From assembly GCA_043781975.1 (NCBI GenBank), contig JAYWAZ010000165.1, positions 9,144-73,143 of the forward strand: DNA of 64,000 bases, written 5' to 3'. Source of the stretch: Bacteroidota bacterium. Its GTDB lineage: Bacteria > Bacteroidota > Bacteroidia > Chitinophagales > Chitinophagaceae. The translations under genes were made by a program, and so were the position numbers. Under the pieces are notes generated by a model. That model was not told where the DNA came from and ran no database searches. It was given only the letters and a program-made list of their open reading frames with translations. Below, one piece after another: positions 20,168 to 40,352 of this stretch. Each line of letters opens with the position of its first letter. The stretch's first letter is position 1.

Positions 20168-20932
20168 TTGCGCCTGTCTTTAAAAATCATCTTACTGTCC
20201 CTGTATCTTGTGTTCGCTGCCAGGCCGGGCCGGGCACAACTCACCCTCAGCGGCACCGTGTATGATTCTTCCAAAATAAACCAGGTGGAGGGAGTAAGGG
20301 TGATCAGTACAGGCGGTTTGTTCACCATCACCGATTCGCTGGGCAACTTTCATATACTGGTAAACGAAAAGGATTCCGTTTCCTTTTATTTTCGCAATAA
20401 ACCCACTCAAAAATTTGCAGTAAAAAATATCACCGACCCTGCTCATTTCGATATTTCCTTGCGCATCACCGTAAAGGGAAAATACAGTACGCTGAAGGAA
20501 GTGGTGGTGCATTCCAAATCCTACCGGCAGGATTCGCTGGAGAACCGAAAGACCTATGCGGACGTATTTGAATACCGGAAGCCGGGCGTCCGTACAAATA
20601 TTTCACCCGATGGTATGGTGGGCGCCGACCTGGATGAACTGATCAATATCTTCCGTTTCAAAAGAAACAAGAGGCTGCATGCTTTCCAGACCCGGCTGGA
20701 AGCGCAGGAGAAAGAAAAATATGTGAATTACCGTTTTAATAAAACACTGGTGAAAAGAATTACACAATTACAGGATGAACAGTTAGATCTTTTTATGATT
20801 CGATACCGGCCATCTTATGAATTTGTAAGCAGAACAAATGAACTGTCTTTTTACCAATATGTACTAAACTGCTCTTATCAATTCAAAATGGATCTGCTGA
20901 AAGAGGATGCAAAAAAAATTTCCCCGCGGTAA
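20168..20932 (+). CDS. Carboxypeptidase-regulatory-like domain protein
   Basis: Signal peptide, LSGTVYDS..., TDSLGNF, LKEVVV pattern; TTG start. Confidence 0.7.
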   Translation: MRLSLKIILLSLYLVFAARPGRAQLTLSGTVYDSSKINQVEGVRVISTGGLFTITDSLGNFHILVNEKDSVSFYFRNKPTQKFAVKNITDPAHFDISLRITVKGKYSTLKEVVVHSKSYRQDSLENRKTYADVFEYRKPGVRTNISPDGMVGADLDELINIFRFKRNKRLHAFQTRLEAQEKEKYVNYRFNKTLVKRITQLQDEQLDLFMIRYRPSYEFVSRTNELSFYQYVLNCSYQFKMDLLKEDAKKISPR

Positions 20933-23544: not shown

Positions 23545-24999
23545 TTATTTTTTTATAACATATCCGGCTACCAATAACCCATTACTGATCAAAGAAGTTA
23601 ACCACTGAATATTCCCGGATGGATTTTTTTTGATGCTGTCAATAAGGGAGACTGCCAGGTTGCCTGCACGGGCGCCTGTATGCAGCCAATGCCCCGGGCC
23701 TTTTAACAGGGTTTTAGATGCAAGCGATCCTATATGCATGCCCGCCTGCAGCAATGACTTCGAGATAAAATCGGGGGTAAGCGCTTTGTATGAGGGATAA
23801 GTTCCTTCAAAAATACCCGCGATGATATCGGCATATTGCTTATCTGTCTTGGCCCTTTCGATCAGCACTTCCATGATCTCCATCCATAGGGGTGCCAGGG
23901 CCCTGTTTCGGGCAAACTGGATCAGGAGGTTTGATAAGGCAAAATCATATCCCAATTCTTCGTTTATCTTTTTGCGGAAGGCGAATAAAGTATTTGCTGA
24001 GAAATCATTTTTGTGTACACAGTCGATGATGCATTCGCCGGCCCAGCGGGCGCTCAGCAACGCATATTGTATGCCATCGCCGCTCAACGGATTTATTAAC
24101 CCGGCTGCATCGCCTATCAGTAATACCCTGTTACCGGTGATGCTGTTTTGTGGATTATAAAAAGTGAGGGGCCATCCGGATATCTTGCCTTTGATGGTAC
24201 CCTTGCCAATGCGTTCAGCCATGTCCTTATTCTGCTCAATATGCTTTGTCAATAAGGTTTTTACATGCTGTTCATTTTTTGGCATGGTGCTGGCTACCAT
24301 GGCCAACCCGATGTTGGCTTTGTTTTTCCCTACCGGGAACATCCAGTATATTCCGGGAAAATTGTACTTTGTAAAAAAGATGTCTACGCGGTCATTGGGC
24401 CCGTTCACATTTTCATAATAAGCCCGCAACCCCAGGAGTTTAAATTTTTCACCGGCTTTTTCACCATGCAGGATACGGGCCACGGTTGAATTACTGCCAT
24501 CGGCGCCTACGATCATTTTTGACCGGATGTATTGGATGTCATCACCTCGTTTCACCTCGGCGATAGCGGCTGTTTCTGTGATTGTAAAATTGACAAGACG
24601 GGTATCTTCCAGGAAAACGGCACCCTTGTTTTTTGCGGCATCATAGATCCAGTTATCAAGCTGCATCCTTGGAATTATTCTTGCATGAAAAGGCAGGTGG
24701 CCGGTCTCGGGCAGGTCAATAAATACTTTTTCATCTTTGATGAACAAGCCTACTTTGGTGATCTCATTTTCCCGTTTAAATTTTTGTAAACGGGTAATGC
24801 CCAGTTTCTGAAGTTCGGCCAACGCGATCGGGCTTACCCCGTCGCCGCATACTTTGTCTCTTGGAAATGTATGCGCTTCCAGTACCATCGTCTTTATTCC
24901 TTTTTCGGCCAATTGATATGCAAGCGCACTGCCCCCCGGGCCTCCGCCCACGATGAGTACATCACAATCGTATTTTTGTACTACCCGTAAGTTTATCAT
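23545..24999 (-). CDS. Geranylgeranyl reductase family flavoprotein with extended helical C-terminus
   Basis: VGGGPGGS, FPRDKVCGDG, GADG, YWMFP, GDAAGLINPLSGDGI. Confidence 0.9.
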   Translation of the reverse strand: MINLRVVQKYDCDVLIVGGGPGGSALAYQLAEKGIKTMVLEAHTFPRDKVCGDGVSPIALAELQKLGITRLQKFKRENEITKVGLFIKDEKVFIDLPETGHLPFHARIIPRMQLDNWIYDAAKNKGAVFLEDTRLVNFTITETAAIAEVKRGDDIQYIRSKMIVGADGSNSTVARILHGEKAGEKFKLLGLRAYYENVNGPNDRVDIFFTKYNFPGIYWMFPVGKNKANIGLAMVASTMPKNEQHVKTLLTKHIEQNKDMAERIGKGTIKGKISGWPLTFYNPQNSITGNRVLLIGDAAGLINPLSGDGIQYALLSARWAGECIIDCVHKNDFSANTLFAFRKKINEELGYDFALSNLLIQFARNRALAPLWMEIMEVLIERAKTDKQYADIIAGIFEGTYPSYKALTPDFISKSLLQAGMHIGSLASKTLLKGPGHWLHTGARAGNLAVSLIDSIKKNPSGNIQWLTSLISNGLLVAGYVIKK

Positions 25000-25008
25000 T
25001 TGATTCGC

Positions 25009-26037
25009 TTAATAATCCCGGTTGATCATGTAAACAATTATTTCTTCTATGAATTTTTTGTCTTTGGAGGCGGGTAACACAGAAAAGATCGAATAGAATT
25101 CTTTTAAAGCGGCGCCTGCCATATACTTTGAGGTGCTTTTGGCGTATTCAATGCTTCCATAAGTATGCATCCATTTTAAGATCAACGCGGCGACCGCTTC
25201 CCGGTTGCCAGGATCCGTTCCCGCCAGGAATTCTTTTATCACCGCGTGTTCATCTTTGGTACAATGATTCAGCAGGTGAATAAGCATCAGTGTTCTTTTG
25301 CCTTCAATGATATCGCCGCCGATTTCTTTACCATATTTATGCTCTTCGGCCACCAGGTTAAGGACATCATCCTGTATTTGAAAAGCAGTGCCCATAAAAT
25401 AACCGAAGCGATCAAATTGTTCCGGTTTTATTTTATTACCGGTACCGATGATGGCCCCGATCCGTACCGGGTGAATACAGGTATACCAGCATGTTTTTTT
25501 AAGGATCATGCGCAGGTAGTCGGCATCCTGCAGGTCGCATACATTGTCTTTTCGCCAACCCAGCTCCATCGCCTGCCCCTCCACCGTTTCCGTTACCATA
25601 TGTTGTATTTCCTGGAATACGGTCATGGTAAGTTTGGGGCCCAGTATCTCTTTGTTCTGCATCAATGGTTTCAGGCTTAATACATTCATGGCATCACCAA
25701 CGTTTACGGCTATGGCCACATTGTTGTATTGATGCATGGTGGGTTTATTGCGGCGCATATAACTGTTATCTTCCACATCATCATGTATCAAAAAAGCATT
25801 ATGAAACAATTCCAATGCGACGGCGGAATTCATCACCATCTCCAGGCTGCCTCCAAATGCTCGGCAGGCAGCGATACACAGGCCCGGCCGGAACGCCTTG
25901 CCACCGCGACGGGGATAATCTTCAATGAGGCTGTATAGGTATTTCCGGGGCTCTTTATCCGGGATAAAATGTTCGATGCCCCTGAGGGTGAAAGCGGCAT
26001 ATTCCGAGAGCATTGATTTCATTACTGAATCTTCCAT
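25009..26037 (-). CDS. Polyprenyl diphosphate synthase (probably short-chain, GGPP-synthase-like)
   Basis: GGKAFRP, HNAFLIHDDVED..RR (FARM), GQAME, KKT, FQIQDDVLN (SARM), GGDIIEGKRT. Confidence 0.93.
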   Translation of the reverse strand: MEDSVMKSMLSEYAAFTLRGIEHFIPDKEPRKYLYSLIEDYPRRGGKAFRPGLCIAACRAFGGSLEMVMNSAVALELFHNAFLIHDDVEDNSYMRRNKPTMHQYNNVAIAVNVGDAMNVLSLKPLMQNKEILGPKLTMTVFQEIQHMVTETVEGQAMELGWRKDNVCDLQDADYLRMILKKTCWYTCIHPVRIGAIIGTGNKIKPEQFDRFGYFMGTAFQIQDDVLNLVAEEHKYGKEIGGDIIEGKRTLMLIHLLNHCTKDEHAVIKEFLAGTDPGNREAVAALILKWMHTYGSIEYAKSTSKYMAGAALKEFYSIFSVLPASKDKKFIEEIIVYMINRDY

Positions 26038-26047
26038 GAGCCGTTAT

Positions 26048-26755
26048 TTATGCCACATTAATATTTACGACCGTACACAGGTATGCATTTGTAGTGTCGC
26101 ATAACAGCCCTGAATAAGTTCCGGGTTTACAGGTTCTGGGGATTTTTATTTTAAGGATCGTTTCCCTGCTAACACCCGGCTTCAGCGTTAAGGTCGCCGG
26201 GCGTATGCTTATATGACTCGCCAGTATTTTAAGATTTTTCGGGCCTAAAAGTGTTGGATGCTGGATCACGATCTTTATGGGTTCCTTACTGTCGTTACTA
26301 AGGGATAGGGAAAGTTCCACGGTACTGCCCGCTTTTGCAAAGCCGCTATTTTGAATGATCGGTATCGACTCTTTTTTATCAGCCGGCTTCGGATCTGATC
26401 CGGGTGCTTTGGTTTGCTTTTCCTTATTTACCACCCCCGAAAGACTGCTGATATGATTTGTCAGTGTAGTAAGGGCATCCAGAAAAATATCGATGGCTTC
26501 ATGTGTGTCCCTGCGAATGCGGCTCATTAATTCATCCGGGTTGCCGCGTATCTCATCCACGTTTATTACCTTTTTTTCCAGTTTTTTGGCGGCTAAGATA
26601 CCAGCGGCTATTTCTTCTTCAAGCACATCAACGGCCGTACTTAAAATTTGCTGGGCGCTGTTTAGTACTTTACCCGGATTAATGTTCTTTAGCCAGTCCG
26701 CGGCATCCTTCATCCTGTCATTATTCTTTGATGTGTTTTCTTTTTCGTCTTTCAC
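26048..26755 (-). CDS. Hypothetical protein: N-terminal helical region plus C-terminal Ig-like domain
   Basis: 235-aa ORF overlapping the upstream stop; LSLSN...LTLKPG...LKIKIP..PGTYSG motif; no signal peptide. Confidence 0.75.
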   Translation of the reverse strand: MKDEKENTSKNNDRMKDAADWLKNINPGKVLNSAQQILSTAVDVLEEEIAAGILAAKKLEKKVINVDEIRGNPDELMSRIRRDTHEAIDIFLDALTTLTNHISSLSGVVNKEKQTKAPGSDPKPADKKESIPIIQNSGFAKAGSTVELSLSLSNDSKEPIKIVIQHPTLLGPKNLKILASHISIRPATLTLKPGVSRETILKIKIPRTCKPGTYSGLLCDTTNAYLCTVVNINVA

Positions 26756-27408
26756 TTCTTTCTTTTGGTTTTAGTTGCCGCTGTTTTTTTCGGAGTTACG
26801 GTTAAGAATAAGGAAAAATAAGTGTGTTCAAATCCTTGTACCAAAATATTGGTTTTGTACAGGCCCTGCTTTGTTTCAGCGGGAATCTTCACCGTTATTT
26901 CAACTTTTTGTGATTGGCCGGGCAGAATTTCAAATGATTGCGGGGTGAAAATTGTTTCAAAGGCGTATCGCCCGCTGGCATCGTCTTGCATGGTATAATC
27001 AGTTTGCTTGAAATTACAAATGATGTTCTCTTTTTTATCACTATCCAGTAAAAAAACCGTGTTGGCAGTAGCGCCAGGCTGACCAGAAACCTGCAACACG
27101 AATGCCGGTTCATTTGTTACTGGTTCTTCCGGGGTTCCGGTACCGCCGGGGTCATTAAATTTCCTGGATAATGCTATTCCCAGATCAACCAGGTTAGTGG
27201 CGTGCTGTATATTCAGTTTCATAAAGAGATTAAAAGCCTCTTTCATGAGATCCGTTTGTTTGGAAAACATTTCTTCCCCGTCCTTTTTAGAAAAATTCAA
27301 TTCCTTTACGAATTTTGTGCCCTCTGATATGAACACCCGGTTAGCCTCGGTTGTTTTTTTAAACAGGGTTTCCAGTTCTTTTGACAAAGAATTTGATTGA
27401 TCACTCAT
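26752..27408 (-). CDS. Hypothetical protein: phasin-like N-terminal helices plus C-terminal Ig-like domain
   Basis: 218-aa ORF; FEILPGQSQKVEITVKIP..QGLY motif; no signal peptide. Confidence 0.75.
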   Translation of the reverse strand: MSDQSNSLSKELETLFKKTTEANRVFISEGTKFVKELNFSKKDGEEMFSKQTDLMKEAFNLFMKLNIQHATNLVDLGIALSRKFNDPGGTGTPEEPVTNEPAFVLQVSGQPGATANTVFLLDSDKKENIICNFKQTDYTMQDDASGRYAFETIFTPQSFEILPGQSQKVEITVKIPAETKQGLYKTNILVQGFEHTYFSLFLTVTPKKTAATKTKRKK

Positions 27409-27529
27409 TAAGGATAATTTAATTGGGGTTAAATATTAAACCATTGCACGGAATGCTACCGGCTTATTTTTAAATTTTTATACGTATTGAGATGCAACGT
27501 AAAAAACAAAATGACAATGGCTTTAAAAG

Positions 27530-28195
27530 TTATTGTCCGGTTGCTCTTTTGGGTTCGCAGTAAAAATGGCTTTGCCAGCTTTGCCACCGCAGCATGTATT
27601 TTTTTTCATCCTGGGGTTTTGCTACGGGTGCGCCAACAAGACTGTCCACCACCAGGGTAAAACAAATATTCTGATTGATATTTTTTTCGCGGACAACGAT
27701 CTCGGCATTGTACGTACCGGTTTTGTTGAATTTTTCCAGGTCGATGCCCATTAATACCATTTCTTCGGCGCCCGCGTCAAGGGTTACCGTTTTCTTATTC
27801 AGCCCTGGCTGAGAGGGTGCTACCGTTCCGTCTATATGTTTCAGTACACGTATACCAACCCTGTAGTTTCTTTGCGCATTGCAGGTGTTCTTAATGATAA
27901 ACGGCACCAGGATCCTTTCCCCGATCAATGCGTGCCGCCCGATTTGTAAGATACAATGTGGCGGGCACTCTTCCTGCGGGGCGCAACAATCTTTTTTTGC
28001 GCCGCCGCCAAACAAAGCAGGCATTTTAAAAGTCGGCAATCCCATATCGGCGATCACTTTATTAAAATTTTCTGTCGTTTTAGCTGAATTATCCATGGTG
28101 GACTTAAACGTTGCCATCGACATGTCGGCCAGCATTTGCAGGCCTTTAGACAAATTTTGTTGCAACCCAGCGGTATTGATTTCTTTATTTTCCAT
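27530..28195 (-). CDS. Hypothetical protein: helical N-terminus, Cys cluster, Ig-like domain
   Basis: 221-aa ORF; DCCAPQEECPPHC; FIIKN...VTLDAG...GTYNAEI. Confidence 0.75.
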   Translation of the reverse strand: MENKEINTAGLQQNLSKGLQMLADMSMATFKSTMDNSAKTTENFNKVIADMGLPTFKMPALFGGGAKKDCCAPQEECPPHCILQIGRHALIGERILVPFIIKNTCNAQRNYRVGIRVLKHIDGTVAPSQPGLNKKTVTLDAGAEEMVLMGIDLEKFNKTGTYNAEIVVREKNINQNICFTLVVDSLVGAPVAKPQDEKKYMLRWQSWQSHFYCEPKRATGQ

Positions 28196-28224
28196 GTTTT
28201 AACTATTTGCGATGCAGGAGCATC

Positions 28225-28962
28225 TTATGCTTTAATATTAAAGGAAATGGCCTTATTCCAAAACCGGATGTCCCCGAAATAATCTTTTTTTGAATCTGCA
28301 TTATCGGGTAATGTTATTGTAAACTGTAATTCCGTTCTTTCACCCGGAGCCAGTACTTTTCCTTTTTCTTTAATGGATACCTCCGCCCAGCCCGCCATGT
28401 CCCTGTATACGTTTTTTGTGATCTCATCCATCATCGCCATATATCCTTCTTTGCCTTTTTCCCGCATGGCCATTGCGGTAGCCCTGCATAAATAGTCCGG
28501 GTCTAAGGTGGTTACGTGTTTTATATCGGGAACAGTAAAGGGAACATTGCCATTATTGGTCAAAGAAAGTATCGCAGTATATGATTTCCCGGGCGCCACT
28601 TCACTAAAATGCAATTGCCCGGGCGACAAATAAATATCCATGTTCTGCTGTACAATGAATTTTATTTTTCTTTTTTGGCCAGCCACTTCAACCGTATTTT
28701 CATAAATGCCCGGAGCTGTCCTCCTGGGCAGCTGGTACCTGATCAGGTGATTTCTTTCTTCGTCCGGTAAAAGGGATGTAATGAATTGTATAGCCTCCTG
28801 CTTACCGCCGGATAGCGCCAACTCTTTAATGAAAAGCCTTTCGGTATCATTATTCCGCATAAAAATATGCCCGGTCAGTTTATGGGGAGGTCCGTTCAGC
28901 ACGATCTCTTGCTCACCGATATGCAATTTTTCATGCATTTTATTTGCTGTCAGCGTTATCAT
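28225..28962 (-). CDS. Hypothetical protein with two tandem Ig-like domains
   Basis: 245-aa ORF; LLPDE..YQLP..APGIY and LSLTNNGN...LAPGE..FTITLP..Y.GDI. Confidence 0.75.
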   Translation of the reverse strand: MITLTANKMHEKLHIGEQEIVLNGPPHKLTGHIFMRNNDTERLFIKELALSGGKQEAIQFITSLLPDEERNHLIRYQLPRRTAPGIYENTVEVAGQKRKIKFIVQQNMDIYLSPGQLHFSEVAPGKSYTAILSLTNNGNVPFTVPDIKHVTTLDPDYLCRATAMAMREKGKEGYMAMMDEITKNVYRDMAGWAEVSIKEKGKVLAPGERTELQFTITLPDNADSKKDYFGDIRFWNKAISFNIKA

Positions 28963-28998
28963 AAACGATCATTTAATAAGTATAAACAGGATGCCAGT

Positions 28999-29475
28999 CT
29001 ACCTCCCTTTTTTAATAACAACCACGCGGTCCTTATCTTCCGGGAAAGGCCTGGTATCGGGTTCGCAGCATTCTACTTCACATCTTTCCAGCGCATTGGG
29101 AACATAGGGTTCTGTAATGACCTGGCTTTCGCCATTCATACAGATCGTAAAGAATTCCTGCCCTAATAATTTGAAACAGACCTGCGAGTAATTGGGTATA
29201 CGTACCCTTACTTTCATCATATCCTTAATATCCTGGAGTGTAAACCTGGGGAGGTTAAGCAGTTCCACTTTGCTATCGGTAAAAACCGGTTGCTTCGGGT
29301 CTCCTATTATTAAAGTGGCCACCGGTTGATTTCGATCACCGGTAATCTTAGCGTTGGAATTGGAGTTAAGCGTAGCATCTACCTTGCTGTTAAGATTGCC
29401 GTCTATATGCGCGGCTATATCTCCTTTTAGGTTGGTGTCAATAGTATAATGATCTGGAATAGTTGGTGAGCCCAT
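28999..29475 (-). CDS. Hypothetical protein, first gene of the isoprenoid cluster
   Basis: ATG at 29475 (MGSPTIPD) preferred to TTG at 29547; Asn/Asp-rich N half, duplicated I.GD..QPV, C-terminal CEVECCEP. Confidence 0.7.
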   Translation of the reverse strand: MGSPTIPDHYTIDTNLKGDIAAHIDGNLNSKVDATLNSNSNAKITGDRNQPVATLIIGDPKQPVFTDSKVELLNLPRFTLQDIKDMMKVRVRIPNYSQVCFKLLGQEFFTICMNGESQVITEPYVPNALERCEVECCEPDTRPFPEDKDRVVVIKKGR

Positions 29476-29730
29476 AAAAAAAGGTTTTAATATAGAGTAA
29501 GATATAAAATAAATTACATATTTCAAGCTATTTCCAAAATTTCTCAAATAAAAGTTCCGCTACCATAAAAAAGGGGTGTTTTTCATGGTAAAATACAGAC
29601 TCCACTAAGCCTGATCGGGCATTTGCTATCATAAATTGTATTGAAGAAGCAAGGAGAACGGTCAGCAGTTAAGAAAACGATTGATGAATTGAAAAAAGGG
29701 AACTAAGTTTATAGGATCAAAAACTGTTTC

Positions 29731-31967: not shown

Positions 31968-32420
31968 TTATTTTTTACTTTTTGATTTTTGTTCCAACCA
32001 CAGACATATCCCTACAATTTTTTCAGCGCCGAATACTTTTACTAATTCAAAAAAACTTTTGACCGCATGCCGTAAAGTATCGTGTTGATAATTCACCAGG
32101 CTGAAATCCTGGTTTATCACAACCGGGGCCAGGGCAATAATGATCACAAACACCTTTAGATACTTCATGGATGTCTGAATATGAACATCATCCATCCTCA
32201 GGCGCCTGAGATTTTTAATAAATTGACAAAAATAGAAAGTAAACAGTAAGGTCATCATCCCTAAACTAGCCAGGTTTATTCCATACATACCTTTCAGATA
32301 ATTTACGCTGTCGGCATAAAGAAATGAGAGGTTTCCGATCGCCAGGCTTTTTACTAAAATCGAGAAGGAAAAAAATTCTGAAATCCATTTCATGATTGTA
32401 ATTAGAATATTTTTCATCAT
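31968..32420 (-). CDS. Hypothetical membrane protein, divergent from the P-loop gene
   Basis: 150-aa AT-rich ORF with about 3 hydrophobic segments. Confidence 0.55.
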   Translation of the reverse strand: MMKNILITIMKWISEFFSFSILVKSLAIGNLSFLYADSVNYLKGMYGINLASLGMMTLLFTFYFCQFIKNLRRLRMDDVHIQTSMKYLKVFVIIIALAPVVINQDFSLVNYQHDTLRHAVKSFFELVKVFGAEKIVGICLWLEQKSKSKK

Positions 32421-32506
32421 TATTTATTTTTCAGCAAATTGGTTAATGATGCTATCCTGACTGTGGATTAATGGCATTATTTTAGGATAAATAGCGGACA
32501 AATGAA

Positions 32507-32514
32507 TAAATTTG
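32507..32514 (+). promoter_or_regulatory. -7 box directly before the P-loop gene (very short or no leader)
   Basis: TAAATTTG ends 4 nt before ATG 32519. Confidence 0.5.
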
Positions 32515-32518
32515 GGCG

Positions 32519-35500
32519 ATGCCCGCCGCCAGCAACCCATATAACCCCTGTGAAATCATTCTTCTTAAGGCTTTGATAGCTAAGACATTTAACAATTCAG
32601 GGCCACAGGAATTGAGCAATAAGATTTATTTCGATCTGGCGGAGGCCATTAATTATGCAGCTAAAAAGTCTGGTAATACTGAAAATGTAAATGACGAATA
32701 TTTAAAAAAAATAATCGGTAATGGGGTTAATCTTAAGTTCAGGCTATCAAAAAAGAATTATATCCTGCTTACTAATTACGTAAATGTAAATAACGAGAAT
32801 TTTAACTTTAATGACTTTTATACGAGTCTTTTTAACGAGTCTATTATAATAATGTATAAAGATATAAATTGGGATAATGCTCAAGATCGTCAGGATGAAG
32901 TAAAGGAGATAAATGCCTGGGCCCTGGAAAAGATAAGGAATCACTTCGCTCCCATAATTCCCTATTCACAGCCGGCTGACAGAAGCCTGAAAGGCGCTTA
33001 TTTTATTGACGAGGATTATATCAGCATTATAGAGGGAAAACCAAAAGACGCACATAAGGCCATTGATTTTTACACCGCCAAGAGAGATGATGACTGCCAA
33101 TGGTTTGGGATTTTACAAAAATGGGATTTGATCCGTACTGGCTACAAATCTTTTAGACAAGCAATTCTTAACAGCTTTGCCAATAATATCAACAGCCGAC
33201 TGGTTGGTCTGGTATCTGGTCCGGGCGGGAGCGGCAAATCAACCTTACTCCGTCGCCTAGCGATAGACACGGTTAAGGAAGAGTTCAGGACGATATGGGT
33301 AAGTAATATAAACGATTTCCTTGCAAATGATTTTGATACTTCATTCGAAGCAACGGCCCGGTATCTAATTATTATTGAAGACTGGTATCAATTGGCCATG
33401 GATGATATGGTCAGCAAATCTTTTTTGCAAAAAATAAATGAGTTTAAAAACATTCGTATTGTAATAGGTGACAGGGACATTACCGGGAAATTTTATAAAA
33501 GGTATTTGTATGGAGAAAATATCTTGCCCCTGAGTTCAGAAGATAATTTAGAGGTACTCCGTAAACTGAAAGCGCTGGAACCAATTTGGTCGAATACGAT
33601 TGACAAATTAATGAATCATGCCGCCAACACTTCATTGTATCTATTATTATTTTTGTTTGCGCATGTTGAAACGAACAAGAATGAAGGTGATCTAAAGATT
33701 GATTTGAATGATGTAATGGCCGATTTCCGGGAAATAATTCAAAGCGATCTGAAAAAAATATACTTACTCTACCCCGGAATCGCCAAAGCCCTCTTTTATT
33801 GGTCCAATGTATATAAAGTACATAAAATAAAGATTAGTGACAGTGCCTTTTGGGCTATTGCCTATTATTACCAGCAAGATCTTAGCAGAAACCTTCAGTT
33901 AACTGGAAACACTAATATTGGTCAGCTGGTTTTTAAATACATATATTTCGATAAATCAGATCAAAGTAAAGTAAAAAACAACGGCATCGAGCTATTAAAC
34001 TTCAATCATGACCTTCTTGCCGAAGAAGGGTTGGCTTATGCGTTGCTGGAAGGCTTTGACGCTTATGATGATAATGATAAAAGAAATATTCTGAATGCCG
34101 TTGTACATAACAACGAGCACTATTCCTCCTCGGTACTCTTTGATATTTTCTATCGCAATGAAAGGCAGATCTTTCATGATGACTCAGAAATAAAAGAATT
34201 TTTTTTCGCCCTTTTTAATAAAAAAAACAATCAGCATCACTACCTGGTAAATATGTTAAGTTTTGATTTTGTTTCTAAAGAAGAAAAGCTTTCCCTTATT
34301 AACCAGGCTACTGATTTTTGTAATAAAAATAATTGGTTTTGGAGCTACTCACCCGAATGGATCAATTCTGTTTTTTCCAAACTGGAACGAAAGGATATTT
34401 TTCAATTTCTTTTTTCAAAAATTACTAATACCCATATTTGGACCAGCTATAGAAAAATACTGGAGCGAAGGGAATTATATCATTTAGCAATTGATTTGTT
34501 GACTAAATTTTGTAACCGGGAGAAATTATACCAAATGATTAGTTATGGCATTATCTGTAATTGCCTTACTATAACCGGAGATAAAAGATTTGCAGAAATA
34601 ATTTTAAAACTCTATTGCGATGATGAAATATTAGACCAAAGTATTGCAGCCGATATTATTTGCACCTGCCTTACATTAACCCATGATAAAACATCAGCAG
34701 AAAAGATATTAAAAGTGTATTGTGGCGAGGAAAAAGAGGCTATCGAATTAAAAGTCGAGCTTATTTGTACTTGTCTTACTATAACAGGGGATAAAAGATA
34801 TGCAGAAAAGATTTTAAATTTCTATTGTGGCGGAGAAAAATTAGAGCAAAATATTGTAGCCGGGCTTACTTGTACTTGTCTTGCTATAACTGAAGACAAA
34901 AATACTGCAGAAAAGATTTTAGAATTGTATTGCAGCGGGGGTAAATTAGATCGAAATATTCCATTTGACCTTATTTGCACTTGCCTTACAATAACAGGTA
35001 ATAAAAACTCTGCAGAAAAGATTTTAAAAATATATTTTAGCGCTGAAAAATTTGACCAACCCATTGCATCACAAATTATAAGCACTTGTCTTACAATAAC
35101 TGGAGATAAAATATCAGCGGAAGAGATTTTAAAAATATATTTTAGTGCTGAAAAACTAGACCAGGCCATTGCATTTGATATTGTCTGCTCCTGTCTTAAC
35201 GTAACCGGGGATAAAATTGCTGCAGAAAGGATTTTGAATAAATTTATCTCAGGAGAAAAGATTGTGCCAGAAATTCTAAGTCCTGCAACTCGAATCTTTT
35301 ATAATAATAAAGATTATGAAATATTGATTCGTGATGTTTTAACAAAAAGTGTCAGCCTGAATCAATTTAAAGCTATATGGAACAGTATAAATATTTTGCA
35401 TTCAATCAACCCGGAAAATGAAGAATTACAGAAGGTTGTTTCCCAATTTTTCAGTCACTTTTTTGATAAAACCAAATCACATGAATTACTTAATGCCCAT

Positions 35501-35917
35501 TCTCAATTATTAAAAATCCCATTGTTCGAAAATAGAGATTGGTGTGCTGCTGTGAATTATATAGATCAAAATTACCGCTACCTTTACCGAAAATTTGTGT
35601 TTGGGTATATCATCGGTCAAAAAGAAGATATCAGAAAAACAGAATCCATTTGCAGATATTTTCTCGAGAACTGGCAAAGAGAAGTTGATTTTCAGAAACT
35701 AAAACGAATACCATATTACCAGCATATTATGCTTTCTTTCCAGCATCCCGCCCTTGAAAAGCTTGCTAAAGAAATTGCTCCCAAACTCTATGCCTATATT
35801 ACAGAAAATAATATTCAATTTTTAAAGGATAATATGAAGGTACTTGAAGACATCGTAATGAATGGAATTATCAAACCCTGGCCAATCAAAGAAGCACTAA
35901 CAGATGAGCCGATATAA
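32519..35917 (+). CDS. Large P-loop NTPase (STAND-like) with C-terminal 35-aa helical repeats
   Basis: Walker A GPGGSGKST, Walker B-like LIIIED, FNHDLL winged-helix-like motif, 7 tandem repeats. Confidence 0.8.
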   Translation: MPAASNPYNPCEIILLKALIAKTFNNSGPQELSNKIYFDLAEAINYAAKKSGNTENVNDEYLKKIIGNGVNLKFRLSKKNYILLTNYVNVNNENFNFNDFYTSLFNESIIIMYKDINWDNAQDRQDEVKEINAWALEKIRNHFAPIIPYSQPADRSLKGAYFIDEDYISIIEGKPKDAHKAIDFYTAKRDDDCQWFGILQKWDLIRTGYKSFRQAILNSFANNINSRLVGLVSGPGGSGKSTLLRRLAIDTVKEEFRTIWVSNINDFLANDFDTSFEATARYLIIIEDWYQLAMDDMVSKSFLQKINEFKNIRIVIGDRDITGKFYKRYLYGENILPLSSEDNLEVLRKLKALEPIWSNTIDKLMNHAANTSLYLLLFLFAHVETNKNEGDLKIDLNDVMADFREIIQSDLKKIYLLYPGIAKALFYWSNVYKVHKIKISDSAFWAIAYYYQQDLSRNLQLTGNTNIGQLVFKYIYFDKSDQSKVKNNGIELLNFNHDLLAEEGLAYALLEGFDAYDDNDKRNILNAVVHNNEHYSSSVLFDIFYRNERQIFHDDSEIKEFFFALFNKKNNQHHYLVNMLSFDFVSKEEKLSLINQATDFCNKNNWFWSYSPEWINSVFSKLERKDIFQFLFSKITNTHIWTSYRKILERRELYHLAIDLLTKFCNREKLYQMISYGIICNCLTITGDKRFAEIILKLYCDDEILDQSIAADIICTCLTLTHDKTSAEKILKVYCGEEKEAIELKVELICTCLTITGDKRYAEKILNFYCGGEKLEQNIVAGLTCTCLAITEDKNTAEKILELYCSGGKLDRNIPFDLICTCLTITGNKNSAEKILKIYFSAEKFDQPIASQIISTCLTITGDKISAEEILKIYFSAEKLDQAIAFDIVCSCLNVTGDKIAAERILNKFISGEKIVPEILSPATRIFYNNKDYEILIRDVLTKSVSLNQFKAIWNSINILHSINPENEELQKVVSQFFSHFFDKTKSHELLNAHSQLLKIPLFENRDWCAAVNYIDQNYRYLYRKFVFGYIIGQKEDIRKTESICRYFLENWQREVDFQKLKRIPYYQHIMLSFQHPALEKLAKEIAPKLYAYITENNIQFLKDNMKVLEDIVMNGIIKPWPIKEALTDEPI
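34550..35284 (+). repeat. Coding tandem repeat, 7 x 105 bp (35 aa)
   Basis: Units start at 34550, 34655, 34760, 34865, 34970, 35075, 35180; consensus IICTCLTITGDKxxAEKILKxYxxxEKLDQxIAxD. Confidence 0.95.
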
Positions 35918-37182: not shown

Positions 37183-37770
37183 TTGTCAGGCAGTAACACG
37201 CTTGAGCATATTATCCGGGGTTGCATAAAAGCAAACAGGGATAGCCAAAAGCAGTTGTATATGCTGTACTTCGGTTTCTCTATGGGTATTTGTATGCGGT
37301 ATAGCGCCCATTACACGGAGGCAGAGGAAATAGTAAATGACGGGTTTTTAAAGATTTTTCATAAGATAGAAACATTTAGGCCAAGTTATGAAAGTTATGA
37401 GGCCTCTTTTGTTGGTTGGATAAAGAAGATATTTATTTATACAGCTATAGATCATTACAGAAAAAATAATAAATCGATAGCAATACCTATACTTGATGAC
37501 AGACACCTGGAAATCATTGAAAATTCAGCCAGCCCGATAGATAAAATGTCTTACAATGAAATAATAGCGCTTGTACAGAAACTATCACCTGCCTACCGAA
37601 CAGTTTTTAATTTATATGTATTGGATGGATATCCGCATGAGGAAATTTCAAAACAGCTGAATATTTCTGTGGGTACTTCTAAATCAAATCTTGCTAAAGC
37701 CAGAATAAACATTCAAAAAATGTTTAAGCTAACAAATGTTAAACTGTATGAGCAACGAAGAGCAATATAA
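37183..37770 (+). CDS. ECF sigma-70 factor
   Basis: SQKQLY, AEEIVNDGFLKIF, WIKKIFIYTAIDHYR, LSPAYRTVFNL, ISVGTSKSNLAKAR. Confidence 0.93.
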   Translation: MSGSNTLEHIIRGCIKANRDSQKQLYMLYFGFSMGICMRYSAHYTEAEEIVNDGFLKIFHKIETFRPSYESYEASFVGWIKKIFIYTAIDHYRKNNKSIAIPILDDRHLEIIENSASPIDKMSYNEIIALVQKLSPAYRTVFNLYVLDGYPHEEISKQLNISVGTSKSNLAKARINIQKMFKLTNVKLYEQRRAI

Positions 37771-38989
37771 ATATATAGAAAATAAGATAATAGAGGCATT
37801 AAATGCATCTGACCATGCATTTAATGAAGCATCATGGAAAAAAATGGAGGCGATGCTGGATCAAAAGAAAGACAAACGCAGGCCTTTATTCTGGATCTTC
37901 AGTGCGCTTATCTTGGGAGTATTGCTTTTGGGCGCCGGAATTATTTATCGGGCAATTAATAAAAATGAGCAATCAGAAAATACAGGTAAACAAATTGCTA
38001 ATAAAAACACGGATAAGCAAACACCACCTACATTAAATGGCACCGATGATATAGCAACCGTGCCACAAACGGCTCAGCCGGAAAAAAAAACAAATAACAC
38101 TAATGCGGCCGATGATAATTACAATACGGCTAATAAAAATATTTACAAAGACAAAGCCGGGTATGCCCTGAGGATCAGGGCGCCGGAGCTGGAAAATGAT
38201 CAGAATAAAAGTGAAAATAAAACAGAGAGGGGCATTTATACTTATAAAATAGCTACCAAAAAAACAACAACTCATTACAAAGGAACCGACATCAATAAAC
38301 CTGAAACAGTTAATAAGTCTGACACAGCCCTTAAAAAAATCGGCACCGTAGCAAAAACCGAAGACAAAAAAGAGAAAAAGAAAAAAAGCAATGCAGGTTT
38401 TTACGTGTTTGCCGCTGTGGGCATGGAAGCGAATGCTACCAAATTATTAATGGTTAAAAACAGCAGTATTACGCCGGTATATGGAATTGGTTTAGGTTAC
38501 CAGTTTAACAGGCGACTGAGTGTGCAAACCGGATTTTATGCCGGTGCAAAAAAATATATAGCCGGCCCCAATGATTATACTGCAAAAGCAGGGTCTTATT
38601 TAACTACAGTAAAAATAATAAAAGTAAATGCCAACTGTATGGTATATCAGGTGCCGGTTACTGTACAATATAACTGGCTTATCAGGCCTAAAGCAAATTA
38701 TTATGCAGCTATTGGTGTATCCAGCTATATCATGAAAAAAGAAAAGTATGATTACACTTTCGAAAGAAATTCTATGCAGTATAGCTATCCTTATGAGTAT
38801 ACAAAGAATAAACACCTGTTTGCCTCCTTACAGTTATCGCTTGGCATGGAAAAGCAAATAGGGCATAAATTATTTATACAAGCAGCTCCTGCCATTATTT
38901 TACCGCTGCGGGGTGTTGGCGAGGGCAGCGTAAAAATATTTACAACGAATCTACATGTGGGGCTTAAATATTTTCCGTTTAAGCAGTAA
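37748..38989 (+). CDS. Putative anti-sigma-like protein: TM anchor, low-complexity linker, C-terminal outer-membrane beta-barrel
   Basis: Overlaps the sigma stop; WKKMEAMLD then TM; N/K/T-rich linker; beta strands ending GLKYFPF; start 37748 or 37736. Confidence 0.75.
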   Translation: MSNEEQYKYIENKIIEALNASDHAFNEASWKKMEAMLDQKKDKRRPLFWIFSALILGVLLLGAGIIYRAINKNEQSENTGKQIANKNTDKQTPPTLNGTDDIATVPQTAQPEKKTNNTNAADDNYNTANKNIYKDKAGYALRIRAPELENDQNKSENKTERGIYTYKIATKKTTTHYKGTDINKPETVNKSDTALKKIGTVAKTEDKKEKKKKSNAGFYVFAAVGMEANATKLLMVKNSSITPVYGIGLGYQFNRRLSVQTGFYAGAKKYIAGPNDYTAKAGSYLTTVKIIKVNANCMVYQVPVTVQYNWLIRPKANYYAAIGVSSYIMKKEKYDYTFERNSMQYSYPYEYTKNKHLFASLQLSLGMEKQIGHKLFIQAAPAIILPLRGVGEGSVKIFTTNLHVGLKYFPFKQ

Positions 38990-39041
38990 AATCAAGGCAA
39001 CCTTTTTCAAAAAAATTGCGTTCTCATTTAAACTACTATTA

Positions 39042-40352
39042 ATGAAAAAAATATTCACTTTAATTACAGCATCCTCTTTGTGCATGATCATTTTGGATGT
39101 AAGCTGCAGTAAAGGCAGCTCTACGCCGCCGCCGCCTTCAAATCCCTGTGCCGGCGTTACCATTGTTGTAACGGGCTCCACCACCCCAACGTCAACTCCA
39201 ACGGCATCGAATGGCAGTATCATTGCATCGGCATCTGGCAGCACAGGCTTTACCTTTAGTTTGAACGGAGGTACGGCACAGACATCGGGTACATTCAGCG
39301 GTCTTGCTGCCGGCAGCTATTCTGTTACTGCAAAAGATGCCAACGGATGTGCAGGTTCCCAAACATTTTCCGTAACAGCAACACCCTGTCCTTCTATAAC
39401 AATAACAGCAACCATAACACAAACTACTACCCCAAGTGCAACAAACGGATCAATAGCTGCCACGGCTGCCGGCAGTACCGGGTTCACCTATAATATTAAC
39501 GGAGGCACTTTTCAGGTAAGCGGCACTTTTACTAACCTGGCTGTAGGCAGCTATACCATTATTGCAAAAGATGTGAATGGCTGCACTGGTTCAAATTCCT
39601 TTAGTGTAACATCAGCATCCTGCCCTATCATCAATTTAAACACAACACCGACAAATACATCGGGGCCAACTGCAACAAATGGGAGTATAGTTGCCGTTGC
39701 AAGTGGAGGTATTGCACCGCATACTTACAGTAAGGATGGCGGTATTAGTTTTCAGCCAACAGGTACATTTAATAATCTGGCAGTTGGTACCTATGCCGTT
39801 GTAGCAAAGGATGTAAATGGTTGCTTAAGTGCATCGGTTAGTACAGTTGTTGGTTCTACCTGTCCTACCATTACTGCAAGTACTACAACTGTGAATACCA
39901 TTAAGTGCGAGAGTAACACAGGCAGTATTACCATAACTGCAGGGGGCAGTACAGGTTTTATGTATAACTTAAACGGCGGTTCTTTCCAGGTTTCCAATTT
40001 ATTCAGTTCATTGGCAGCGGGTACTTTTAACTATGGAGTAAGAGACCTGAACGGTTGTTTAAAAACAGGTACTGCTACCGTAAACCTGGCTCCCGCCGGC
40101 CCCTTATTTTTAGCCGTTAAAGCAGTATTGGCTGTTAATTGTGCCATACCCGGATGTCACAGTTTACCATCACCACAAAATGGGCTTGATTTTGCCGATG
40201 ATTGTACCATTGTATCACAGGGATTAAGAATTAAAGCAAGGGCTGTGGATGCAAACCCATCGCAAATGCCACCAACCGGGCCGCCATTATCAAATGCCGA
40301 CAAACAAAAAATTATTGATTGGTTAAATGCAGGAGGAAAGCATAATAATTAA
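39042..40352 (+). CDS. Lipoprotein with four SprB-type repeats and C-terminal cytochrome c-like domain
   Basis: MKK...LDVSC lipobox; 4 repeats with GSI...F..LA.G.Y....KD.NGC; CAIPGCH...MPP...IIDWLNAG. Confidence 0.8.
   Translation: MKKIFTLITASSLCMIILDVSCSKGSSTPPPPSNPCAGVTIVVTGSTTPTSTPTASNGSIIASASGSTGFTFSLNGGTAQTSGTFSGLAAGSYSVTAKDANGCAGSQTFSVTATPCPSITITATITQTTTPSATNGSIAATAAGSTGFTYNINGGTFQVSGTFTNLAVGSYTIIAKDVNGCTGSNSFSVTSASCPIINLNTTPTNTSGPTATNGSIVAVASGGIAPHTYSKDGGISFQPTGTFNNLAVGTYAVVAKDVNGCLSASVSTVVGSTCPTITASTTTVNTIKCESNTGSITITAGGSTGFMYNLNGGSFQVSNLFSSLAAGTFNYGVRDLNGCLKTGTATVNLAPAGPLFLAVKAVLAVNCAIPGCHSLPSPQNGLDFADDCTIVSQGLRIKARAVDANPSQMPPTGPPLSNADKQKIIDWLNAGGKHNN

Follow-up and report, generated by a model that had tools for sequence, protein, structure and literature searches.

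A STAND NTPase with a homogenised helical repeat array and a predicted helix-turn-helix domain in Bacteroidota: a possible ligand-gated transcription switch

We analysed 64,000 nt of the forward strand of contig JAYWAZ010000165.1 (positions 9,144 to 73,143; assembly GCA_043781975.1 of a Bacteroidota bacterium, family Chitinophagaceae), hereafter the window, and focused on a gene for a 1132-aa protein, P0001, in which a predicted helix-turn-helix (HTH)-like domain is followed by a module of the signal transduction ATPase with numerous domains (STAND) type and by a helical repeat array. The features of the locus are listed in Table 1. The gene is single-copy in its own genome (G000). A preliminary description of this DNA had placed it in an AT-rich island, and this was confirmed, since the GC content of the gene is 34.4%, compared to 45.7% in the upstream and 44.8% in the downstream flank. 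The GC content at third codon positions (GC3) is 33%; five of seven comparison genes have values of 48-60%, and the other two, which lie nearby, have 35-36%. The AT-rich stretch is about 4.1 kb long and contains two open reading frames (ORFs), i.e. the P0001 gene and a divergent ORF of 150 aa. The contigs of three of four public sequencing runs, all from one study that is possibly the source of the window DNA, cover the whole stretch in one piece and span the repeats with no joint and no indel, so that the repeat count is not an assembly artefact. No repeat-number variant was present in the contigs of the four runs, which drop rare variants. No RNA data set was listed as a holder of this stretch. 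At window position 32358, the window has an A and all four runs have a T, resulting in one amino-acid change in the divergent ORF.

Table 1. Features of the P0001 locus in window coordinates (aa, residues of P0001)
Feature	Position	Strand	Basis
Divergent hydrophobic ORF, 150 aa; candidate target, may not be a conserved gene	31968..32420	-	same AT-rich stretch
Divergent intergenic region, 98 bp; candidate operator region	32421..32518		sequence
TAAATTTG in the divergent intergenic region, predicted promoter element	32507-32514		fits TAnnTTTG
Gene for the 1132-aa HTH-like/STAND/repeat protein P0001	32519..35917	+	one intact open frame
N-terminal four-to-five-helix domain (aa 7-105), predicted lambda-repressor/XRE-like HTH	32537..32833	+	model, structure list, profile test
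Two extra helices (aa 106-150), common to the closest relative P0002	32834..32968	+	alignment and model
Predicted STAND nucleotide-binding oligomerisation module: nucleotide-binding domain, helical domain, winged helix (aa 157-510; inner borders approximate)	32987..34048	+	PF25199, model pLDDT mostly 78-95, SAMD9 matches
Walker A GPGGSGKST (aa 234-242)	33218..33244	+	G234, G237, G239, K240 invariant in 45 sequences
Walker B LIIIED (aa 283-288)	33365..33382	+	E287, D288 invariant in 45 sequences
RIVIGDR with R319	33455..33475	+	R319 at least 90% conserved in 45 aligned sequences
FNHD	34001..34012	+	F495 invariant, H497/D498 at least 90% conserved (45 sequences)
Helical linker/arm (aa 511-665)	34049..34513	+	full-length model
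Seven 35-aa two-helix repeats (aa 666-910)	34514..35248	+	Tandem Repeats Finder, repeat profile, model
Variable pairs YG, AD, VE, AG, FD, SQ, FD	codons 34544-34549, then each 105 bases	+	start of helix A
Conserved C-terminal helical cap (aa 930-1125); end with HP..L and PxW-type motifs	35306..35893	+	family alignments

The earlier designation of the protein as a STAND/NLR-like NTPase with Walker A and B motifs was borne out. The Pfam model nSTAND_NTPase5 (PF25199) matches P0001 with 38.6 bits, above its cut-off of 34, and exceeds the curated cut-off also in nearly all relatives scanned; the nSTAND3 score of 22.6 bits is below the cut-off of 27.2. Both Walker motifs are conserved in the family, R319 presumably represents a sensor-1-like arginine, and we take FNHD to be the counterpart of the MHD motif of NB-ARC winged helices. 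A GxP motif is expected in the helical domain of STAND proteins. No conserved G-P was found at the expected place in the 45 aligned sequences, and the consensus there is YxxxLFLLLF; the missing GxP is a clade variant, and the STAND fold is retained. The full-length model has a mean predicted local distance difference test (pLDDT) value of 78.5. Its nucleotide-binding oligomerisation module (NOD) and arm have human SAMD9 as the best fold match (Foldseek E 1e-8; Z 17.1, root-mean-square deviation (rmsd) 7.0, 414 residues aligned), followed by EfAvs5 (9jap, Z 14.5), NLRC4, a STAND-TPR protein, and Apaf-1, and the stretch of aa 152-579 aligns with SAMD9, Avs5, NLRC4, and Apaf-1 at Z values of 12-17. 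No useful PDB sequence match was obtained for the family profile, the N-terminal profile, or the repeats plus cap. As judged from the profile score, the conserved motifs, and the modelled fold, the NTPase belongs to the STAND class.

MalT-type structures are also among the best fold matches, i.e. a maltose-system structure (8bob) and a STAND-TPR structure (6mfv) match at Z values of 12.2-12.6. P0001 might thus be a MalT-like regulator whose ligand is a small molecule or host protein instead of a component of an invader, all the more as STAND regulators outside of defence are described in a recent survey (PMC13581612). However, the swapping of effectors with SIR2 domains and nucleases, the homogenised repeats with their variable pair, and the rarity of the gene (see below) point to conflict, and no metabolic operon is linked to the gene across the relatives. 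We consider this explanation very unlikely.

The repeat array had been described as seven 35-aa units that are still similar at the DNA level and belong to an unrecognised type, and these three statements hold. A repeat profile detects seven full units, preceded by one degenerate partial unit, and Tandem Repeats Finder reports a period of 105 (score 446, 34561-35163; a second row reaches 35235). The full-length model predicts that each unit is a two-helix hairpin and that the C-terminus is all helical. The CxC motif that had been ascribed to every repeat is present as C-x-C-L in six of the seven units, whose identities are 55-75% at the DNA and 40-57% at the protein level, while the sixth of the seven units has S-T-C-L. 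The motif is also not a family trait: among the relatives, S-T-A-L and V-A-A-F are found at this place besides C-x-C-L, and their related units are 30, 33, 34, 35, 40 or 42 aa long, showing that neither the length nor the cysteines define the repeat family. Metal binding by CxC was considered and ruled out, because the cysteines are not conserved in relatives. Relatives differ widely in copy number, with about two to 13 units detected.

We compared 83 unit cores from 12 proteins. The identity is 63% within a protein and 28% between proteins, and for 71 of the 83 cores the nearest neighbour resides in the same protein, indicating that each lineage has rebuilt its own array. The array had been called recently expanded. 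The expansion is indeed lineage-specific, but the synonymous divergence of 0.555 between the window units shows that it is not very recent. The non-synonymous divergence is lower, 0.273, which fits a gene under selection. The most variable columns in six genes are positions -2 and -1, i.e. the residue pair with which helix A starts; their mean relative entropies are 2.9 and 2.7, the next value being 1.7. For the window repeats, the non-synonymous value (pN) is 0.527 at the pair versus 0.257 elsewhere, the synonymous value (pS) is 0.555, and the pair ranks 4 and 8 of 35, so that the signal is weaker here. The relative L035 has the pairs FG, FG, HQ, NS, FG, FG, HQ, QP, and NE, with a pN of 0.574 at the pair versus 0.051 elsewhere and a pS of 0.249; in L040, position -1 ranks only 18 of 35. 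Several pairs recur among the 83 units, i.e. HQ (10), YQ (7), and FE, NQ, FG, and DS (four each). A small recurring variable pair per repeat would leave the specificity of the sensor open to two-residue swaps.

Repeats of two helices and 34-35 aa in which a set of residue pairs recurs are reminiscent of PPR or TALE arrays, which read nucleic acid one base at a time, and both a PPR link on the basis of the 35-aa length and binding of nucleic acid had been put forward for the window gene. Neither was supported. The window array is net acidic (29 K+R versus 37 D+E), which argues against nucleic-acid binding; three of six relatives are likewise acidic, and the remainder are mildly basic at most. 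In addition, the period varies between 30 and 42 aa, and the second residue of the pair is mostly Q, E, D, S, or G, residues that helix starts favour anyway. Up to an E value of 10 and within the limits of the HMMER filter, neither P0001 nor any of five repeat arrays matched a PPR, TPR or HEAT family. Base-by-base reading is therefore highly improbable. High-scoring Pfam rows on the arrays were summed short matches to unrelated families and were discarded. The best Atlas match of the repeats (0.83) is unnamed. Taken at the level of sequence, the repeats form an unnamed two-helix family that is homogenised within each protein.

The full-length job gave a poor model of the N-terminal domain. A pLDDT of 83.7 and a predicted template modelling score (pTM) of 0.81 were reached when the domain was modelled from an alignment of 18 rows. 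This model was compared with 48,161 PDB representatives. The matches are weak (best Z 4.9, rmsd 2.9-3.2, 68-77 residues aligned), and lambda-repressor-like HTH domains make up about 40 of the 50 rows shown, as assigned from their titles and from fold classes as we know them, including Oct4/Brn-5 POU, C.EcoT38IS, TP901-1 CI, XRE proteins, Stl, ImmR, P2 C, SinR, and CapH. A profile built from the N-termini of 22 other members, with P0001 and P0002 left out, scores P0001 with 14.1 bits over helices 2-4, higher than all 300 shuffled sequences (maximum 9.3) and all 340 control segments (maximum 8.4). The top Atlas match is an HTH cro/C1 cluster (0.82), which is a lead only. Taken together, the N-terminal domain is likely an HTH domain, and from the predicted fold we infer that it would bind DNA sequence-specifically. 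A Pfam scan of P0001 detected no enzymatic effector, no AlbA_2, and no SIR2 domain (PF13289). None of 215 candidates for shorter stand-alone relatives of the N-terminal domain gave a score, and pairwise profile comparison of the N-terminal groups gave a best probability of 5.6%.

An initial search revealed 44 relatives of P0001 with identities of 30-41%. A profile search of 1.84 billion representatives yielded 289 clusters at E <= 1e-30, 402 at 1e-10, and 501 at 1e-3. The named hosts are mostly Bacteroidota, but also include Cloacimonadota, Proteobacteria, and others; for the closest relative, P0002, the source names Ferruginibacter sp. as host. The gene is sporadic and not a conserved housekeeping gene: it was found in one of 338 other genomes of the genus, that copy starting with a SIR2-type motif, and in none of 300 genomes of the family. 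Plasmid and phage collections contained no match, and IMG/VR had at least two weak partial matches among the matches listed. The N-termini of the best 150 representatives are SIR2-like (27), nuclease-like (16), PRTase-CE (3), caspase (1), transmembrane (2), winged helix (1), non-enzymatic “HTH-like” (85), and unassigned or truncated (15), whereby the 85 include members that carry the non-enzymatic label by default, and the L042/L045 subgroup may not share the fold. By this classification, the small family appears to swap its N-terminal effectors between SIR2, PRTase-CE, nuclease, caspase, and a non-enzymatic domain.

A FastTree tree of 79 cores, with an uncertain root, places the element-borne members in about two lineages, which are separated by SIR2 and PRTase clades, and P0001 and P0002 in a third, deep branch (support 0.97). 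The N-terminal groups of P0018, P0041, P0029, and L042 depart from the core tree, which suggests that N-terminal domains were swapped between elements. Several short members of about 510-690 aa (L036, L041, L044, L050, L061, L067, and L087) have neither repeats nor cap, and the next gene is a conserved ORF of about 193 aa, possibly a separate sensor or partner, for which the copies scanned had no Pfam or NCBIfam match. A few relatives (L035:7150-10784, L054, L055, and L039) are broken by stops, frame breaks or assembly gaps.

Scans of genomes and metagenomes for the genomic neighbourhoods of relatives gave 25 and 41 loci, respectively, of which 46 were kept and sorted by N-terminus by hand. 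Left out were eight weak loci (L056, L057, L095-L100), seven duplicates (L062, L073, L074, L076, L079, L093, L094), four whose N-termini are truncated (L053, L071, L081, L090), and L065, which is of the membrane type. Eighteen loci are non-enzymatic, and 14 of them have at least 3 kb of upstream sequence; in 12 of these 14, the upstream region carries a gene for a type IV coupling protein in the opposite orientation. In contrast, no coupling protein was found at the 17 of the 28 enzyme-type loci that have at least 3 kb upstream; since the 14 non-enzymatic loci represent about two STAND lineages, the two fractions are not 31 independent cases. Most of the 12 loci also have a relaxase or a serine recombinase nearby, and the two loci without a coupling protein, L037 and L043, have operon genes in common with L045. 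The coupling proteins belong to four lineages with identities of at most 33% between lineages. In eight related elements, the STAND core is on average 35% conserved, compared to 57% for the coupling protein. Co-divergence of the STAND and the coupling protein (rho 0.42, 49 of 5000 permutations) is confounded by kinship and was not used. At two loci (L042:3486-5498 and L046:3194-5153), genes for a small protein, a JAB domain protein, and a ThiF/E1 protein directly precede the coupling protein gene, i.e. a ubiquitin-like conjugation set resides inside the transfer operon.

The family composition and the neighbourhoods bear on the alternative that P0001 acts in Avs-type abortive infection as defence cargo of an element, whereby the repeats would sense a conserved phage protein and the oligomerised N-terminus would harm the cell by binding DNA non-specifically or by binding a host target. 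The same core and repeats are fused to the enzymes listed above, a PADLOC scan revealed a named defence gene within 5 kb at seven of the 28 enzyme-type loci, and the closest folds are the antiviral SAMD9 and Avs5. The patchy distribution and the low GC content also speak for it, and PMC12803255 describes Avs sensors as mostly TPR-like helical repeats. However, P0001 has no enzymatic effector, and none of the Avs models of PADLOC 2.0 matches P0001 or 27 relatives. Pfam and PADLOC scans detected no defence gene adjoining the window gene, and a fixed head-to-head site next to four lineages of coupling proteins fits a regulator better than cargo. We regard this alternative, the strongest of those considered here, as rather unlikely.

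The predicted HTH domain and the tie to mobilisable elements move the best reading from a cell-killing Avs protein towards a regulator. We give an even chance to the proposal that P0001 is a ligand-gated transcription switch composed of a STAND ATPase, helical repeats, and a predicted repressor-like HTH domain. Avs7, according to PMC12803255, rests closed on ADP, binds the phage trigger with its helical repeats, exchanges ADP for ATP, and oligomerises. With Avs7, Avs5, and SAMD9 as models, the NOD of P0001 would be held closed on ADP by the repeats and cap until the repeats bind a protein from a conjugative element or phage that enters the cell, with the variable residue pair tuning the specificity. 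ATP exchange and oligomerisation would then cluster or reorient the HTH domains and switch the divergent promoter. In this genome, P0001 might control the gene for the small divergent membrane protein, or it might act in trans. The divergent operon with a coupling protein in most HTH-type relatives suggests that the ancestral job would have been the timing of the element's transfer genes. The switch and the Avs alternative would meet if the switch turned on a toxic membrane protein during infection. In a more far-reaching version, which we consider unlikely, an NLR-type receptor would be the master switch of Bacteroidota mobilisable elements: a code of two residues per repeat, rewritten by repeat shuffling, would sense a helper or phage protein, the HTH domain would turn on the transfer genes, and a swap to SIR2, nuclease, PRTase, or caspase would convert the switch into an antiphage killer.

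Several observations weigh against a transcription switch. The HTH fold match is weak, as its best Z value shows, Foldseek gave no match of the N-terminal model at E <= 0.001 in PDB and viral libraries, none of 18 family N-termini has a Pfam HTH match, and P0002 scores 12.0 bits on the N-terminal profile but out of register. In about a third of the family, the same sensor is joined to antiphage-type enzymes, and the shortest element-borne members are devoid of repeats altogether. The association with coupling proteins has the limited independence stated above, the neighbourhood of the P0001/P0002 branch is known only from the window, no palindrome that could represent the operator is common to 13 intergenic regions, and no coupling protein or relaxase was matched in G000, which is 86% complete.

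The absence of element genes from G000 would also be expected if P0001 were left over from a lost element and had no role at present, and the divergent ORF, which has no clear relatives, is unlike the gene that comes first in the L036 operon. A match of this ORF to DUF2975 is below the cut-off, and 150 other genomes of the genus contain only two weak matches, both with stop codons. Nevertheless, a remnant is very unlikely, given that the 1132-aa frame is open, all motifs are intact, and the repeats carry a purifying signal. In the divergent intergenic region, one element fits TAnnTTTG, which we take to be the Bacteroidota -7 promoter consensus; a scan for sigma-70 promoters and terminators gave results near chance.

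With respect to known systems, the PF25199 model is a domain label only and is silent on HTH, repeats, and mobile-element context; no published work naming nSTAND5 was found in the literature searched. Avs5 is similar in its tripartite layout, its NOD fold, and the SIR2 domain of some P0001 relatives, and a Glu-type Walker B, as described for PaAvs5-1 (IIFIE) in PMC12931631, is also found in the P0001 family. P0001 differs from Avs5 in the absence of SIR2, the nSTAND3 score below the cut-off, and other repeats and cap. SAMD9/SAMD9L and Avs6/Avs9 provide the best structural match for NOD and arm, and human SAMD9 is the closest solved fold of the core, but P0001 has no AlbA_2, SIR2 or OB-fold, an identity of only 10-13%, and a C-terminus predicted to be all helical. 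It also retains the Walker A lysine, unlike SAMD9, for which PMC5445408 gives GGT/S. By membership, P0001 is neither PPR, Avs5, nor SAMD9/Avs9.

The mobile-element repressors CI of lambda, ImmR, and Stl are small and are released by cleavage or an antirepressor. P0001 resembles them in the predicted XRE-type fold, which P2 C also has, and, in the relatives, in the head-to-head arrangement with element genes, but its predicted HTH domain is fused to an NLR-type ATPase and a sensor. A further likeness exists to fungal NLRs (HET-E WD40, TPR, and ANK types), whose repeats are described as being homogenised inside each gene except for a few hypervariable positions (PMC4986451, PMC13449251); the latter source also reports hypervariable, internally conserved NLR repeats for bacteria in general. 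High internal conservation is defined as at least 85% identity between repeats over 100 aa. The within-protein identities of L035 (0.88) and P0011 (0.91) exceed this value, and L035, with its contrast in pN between the pair and the other positions, closely matches the fungal pattern. The P0001 repeats, at 0.56, do not reach it, belong to another repeat family, and accompany a predicted DNA-binding effector. An HTH-STAND regulator of mobilisable elements was not found in literature listings and abstract openings. The 2026 Avs survey by Lee et al. (PMC13581612) comprises 589 clades, 198 of them defence-associated. Five accessions and the name “Chryseobacterium” are absent from seven of its supplementary files; the family may already be one of the 589 clades.

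Bacterial NLR-like proteins studied so far couple phage sensing to a killing enzyme. The P0001 family appears to use one sensor module with two outputs, either killing enzymes or a predicted DNA-binding domain, and members of the latter type are linked to the transfer operon of mobile elements. This would, if true, connect innate-immune receptors with the control of horizontal transfer and provide a natural example of effectors exchanged between immune and regulatory roles. What makes the gene interesting is its predicted DNA-binding output, the link to mobilisable elements, and the variable pair of its repeats.

The gene and its surroundings look like accessory DNA between 20.9 and 36.1 kb, because the ortholog of the downstream gene (36119) adjoins the ortholog of the gene at 20168-20929 in six of the 18 genomes of the genus that have the former. 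The two end regions scanned contained no convincing repeats that would mark island borders, and a search for a tRNA gene was likewise negative. The same accessory stretch contains an operon on the minus strand (23545-29547) with a geranylgeranyl-reductase-like gene, a polyprenyl synthase gene, and genes for five unannotated small proteins, three of which have weak Ig-like C-terminal matches and one a weak phasin match. Downstream, the region 37183-40352 encodes an extracytoplasmic function (ECF) sigma factor, a beta-barrel outer-membrane protein, and a Thr/Ser-rich repeat protein, the latter two with a low GC3.

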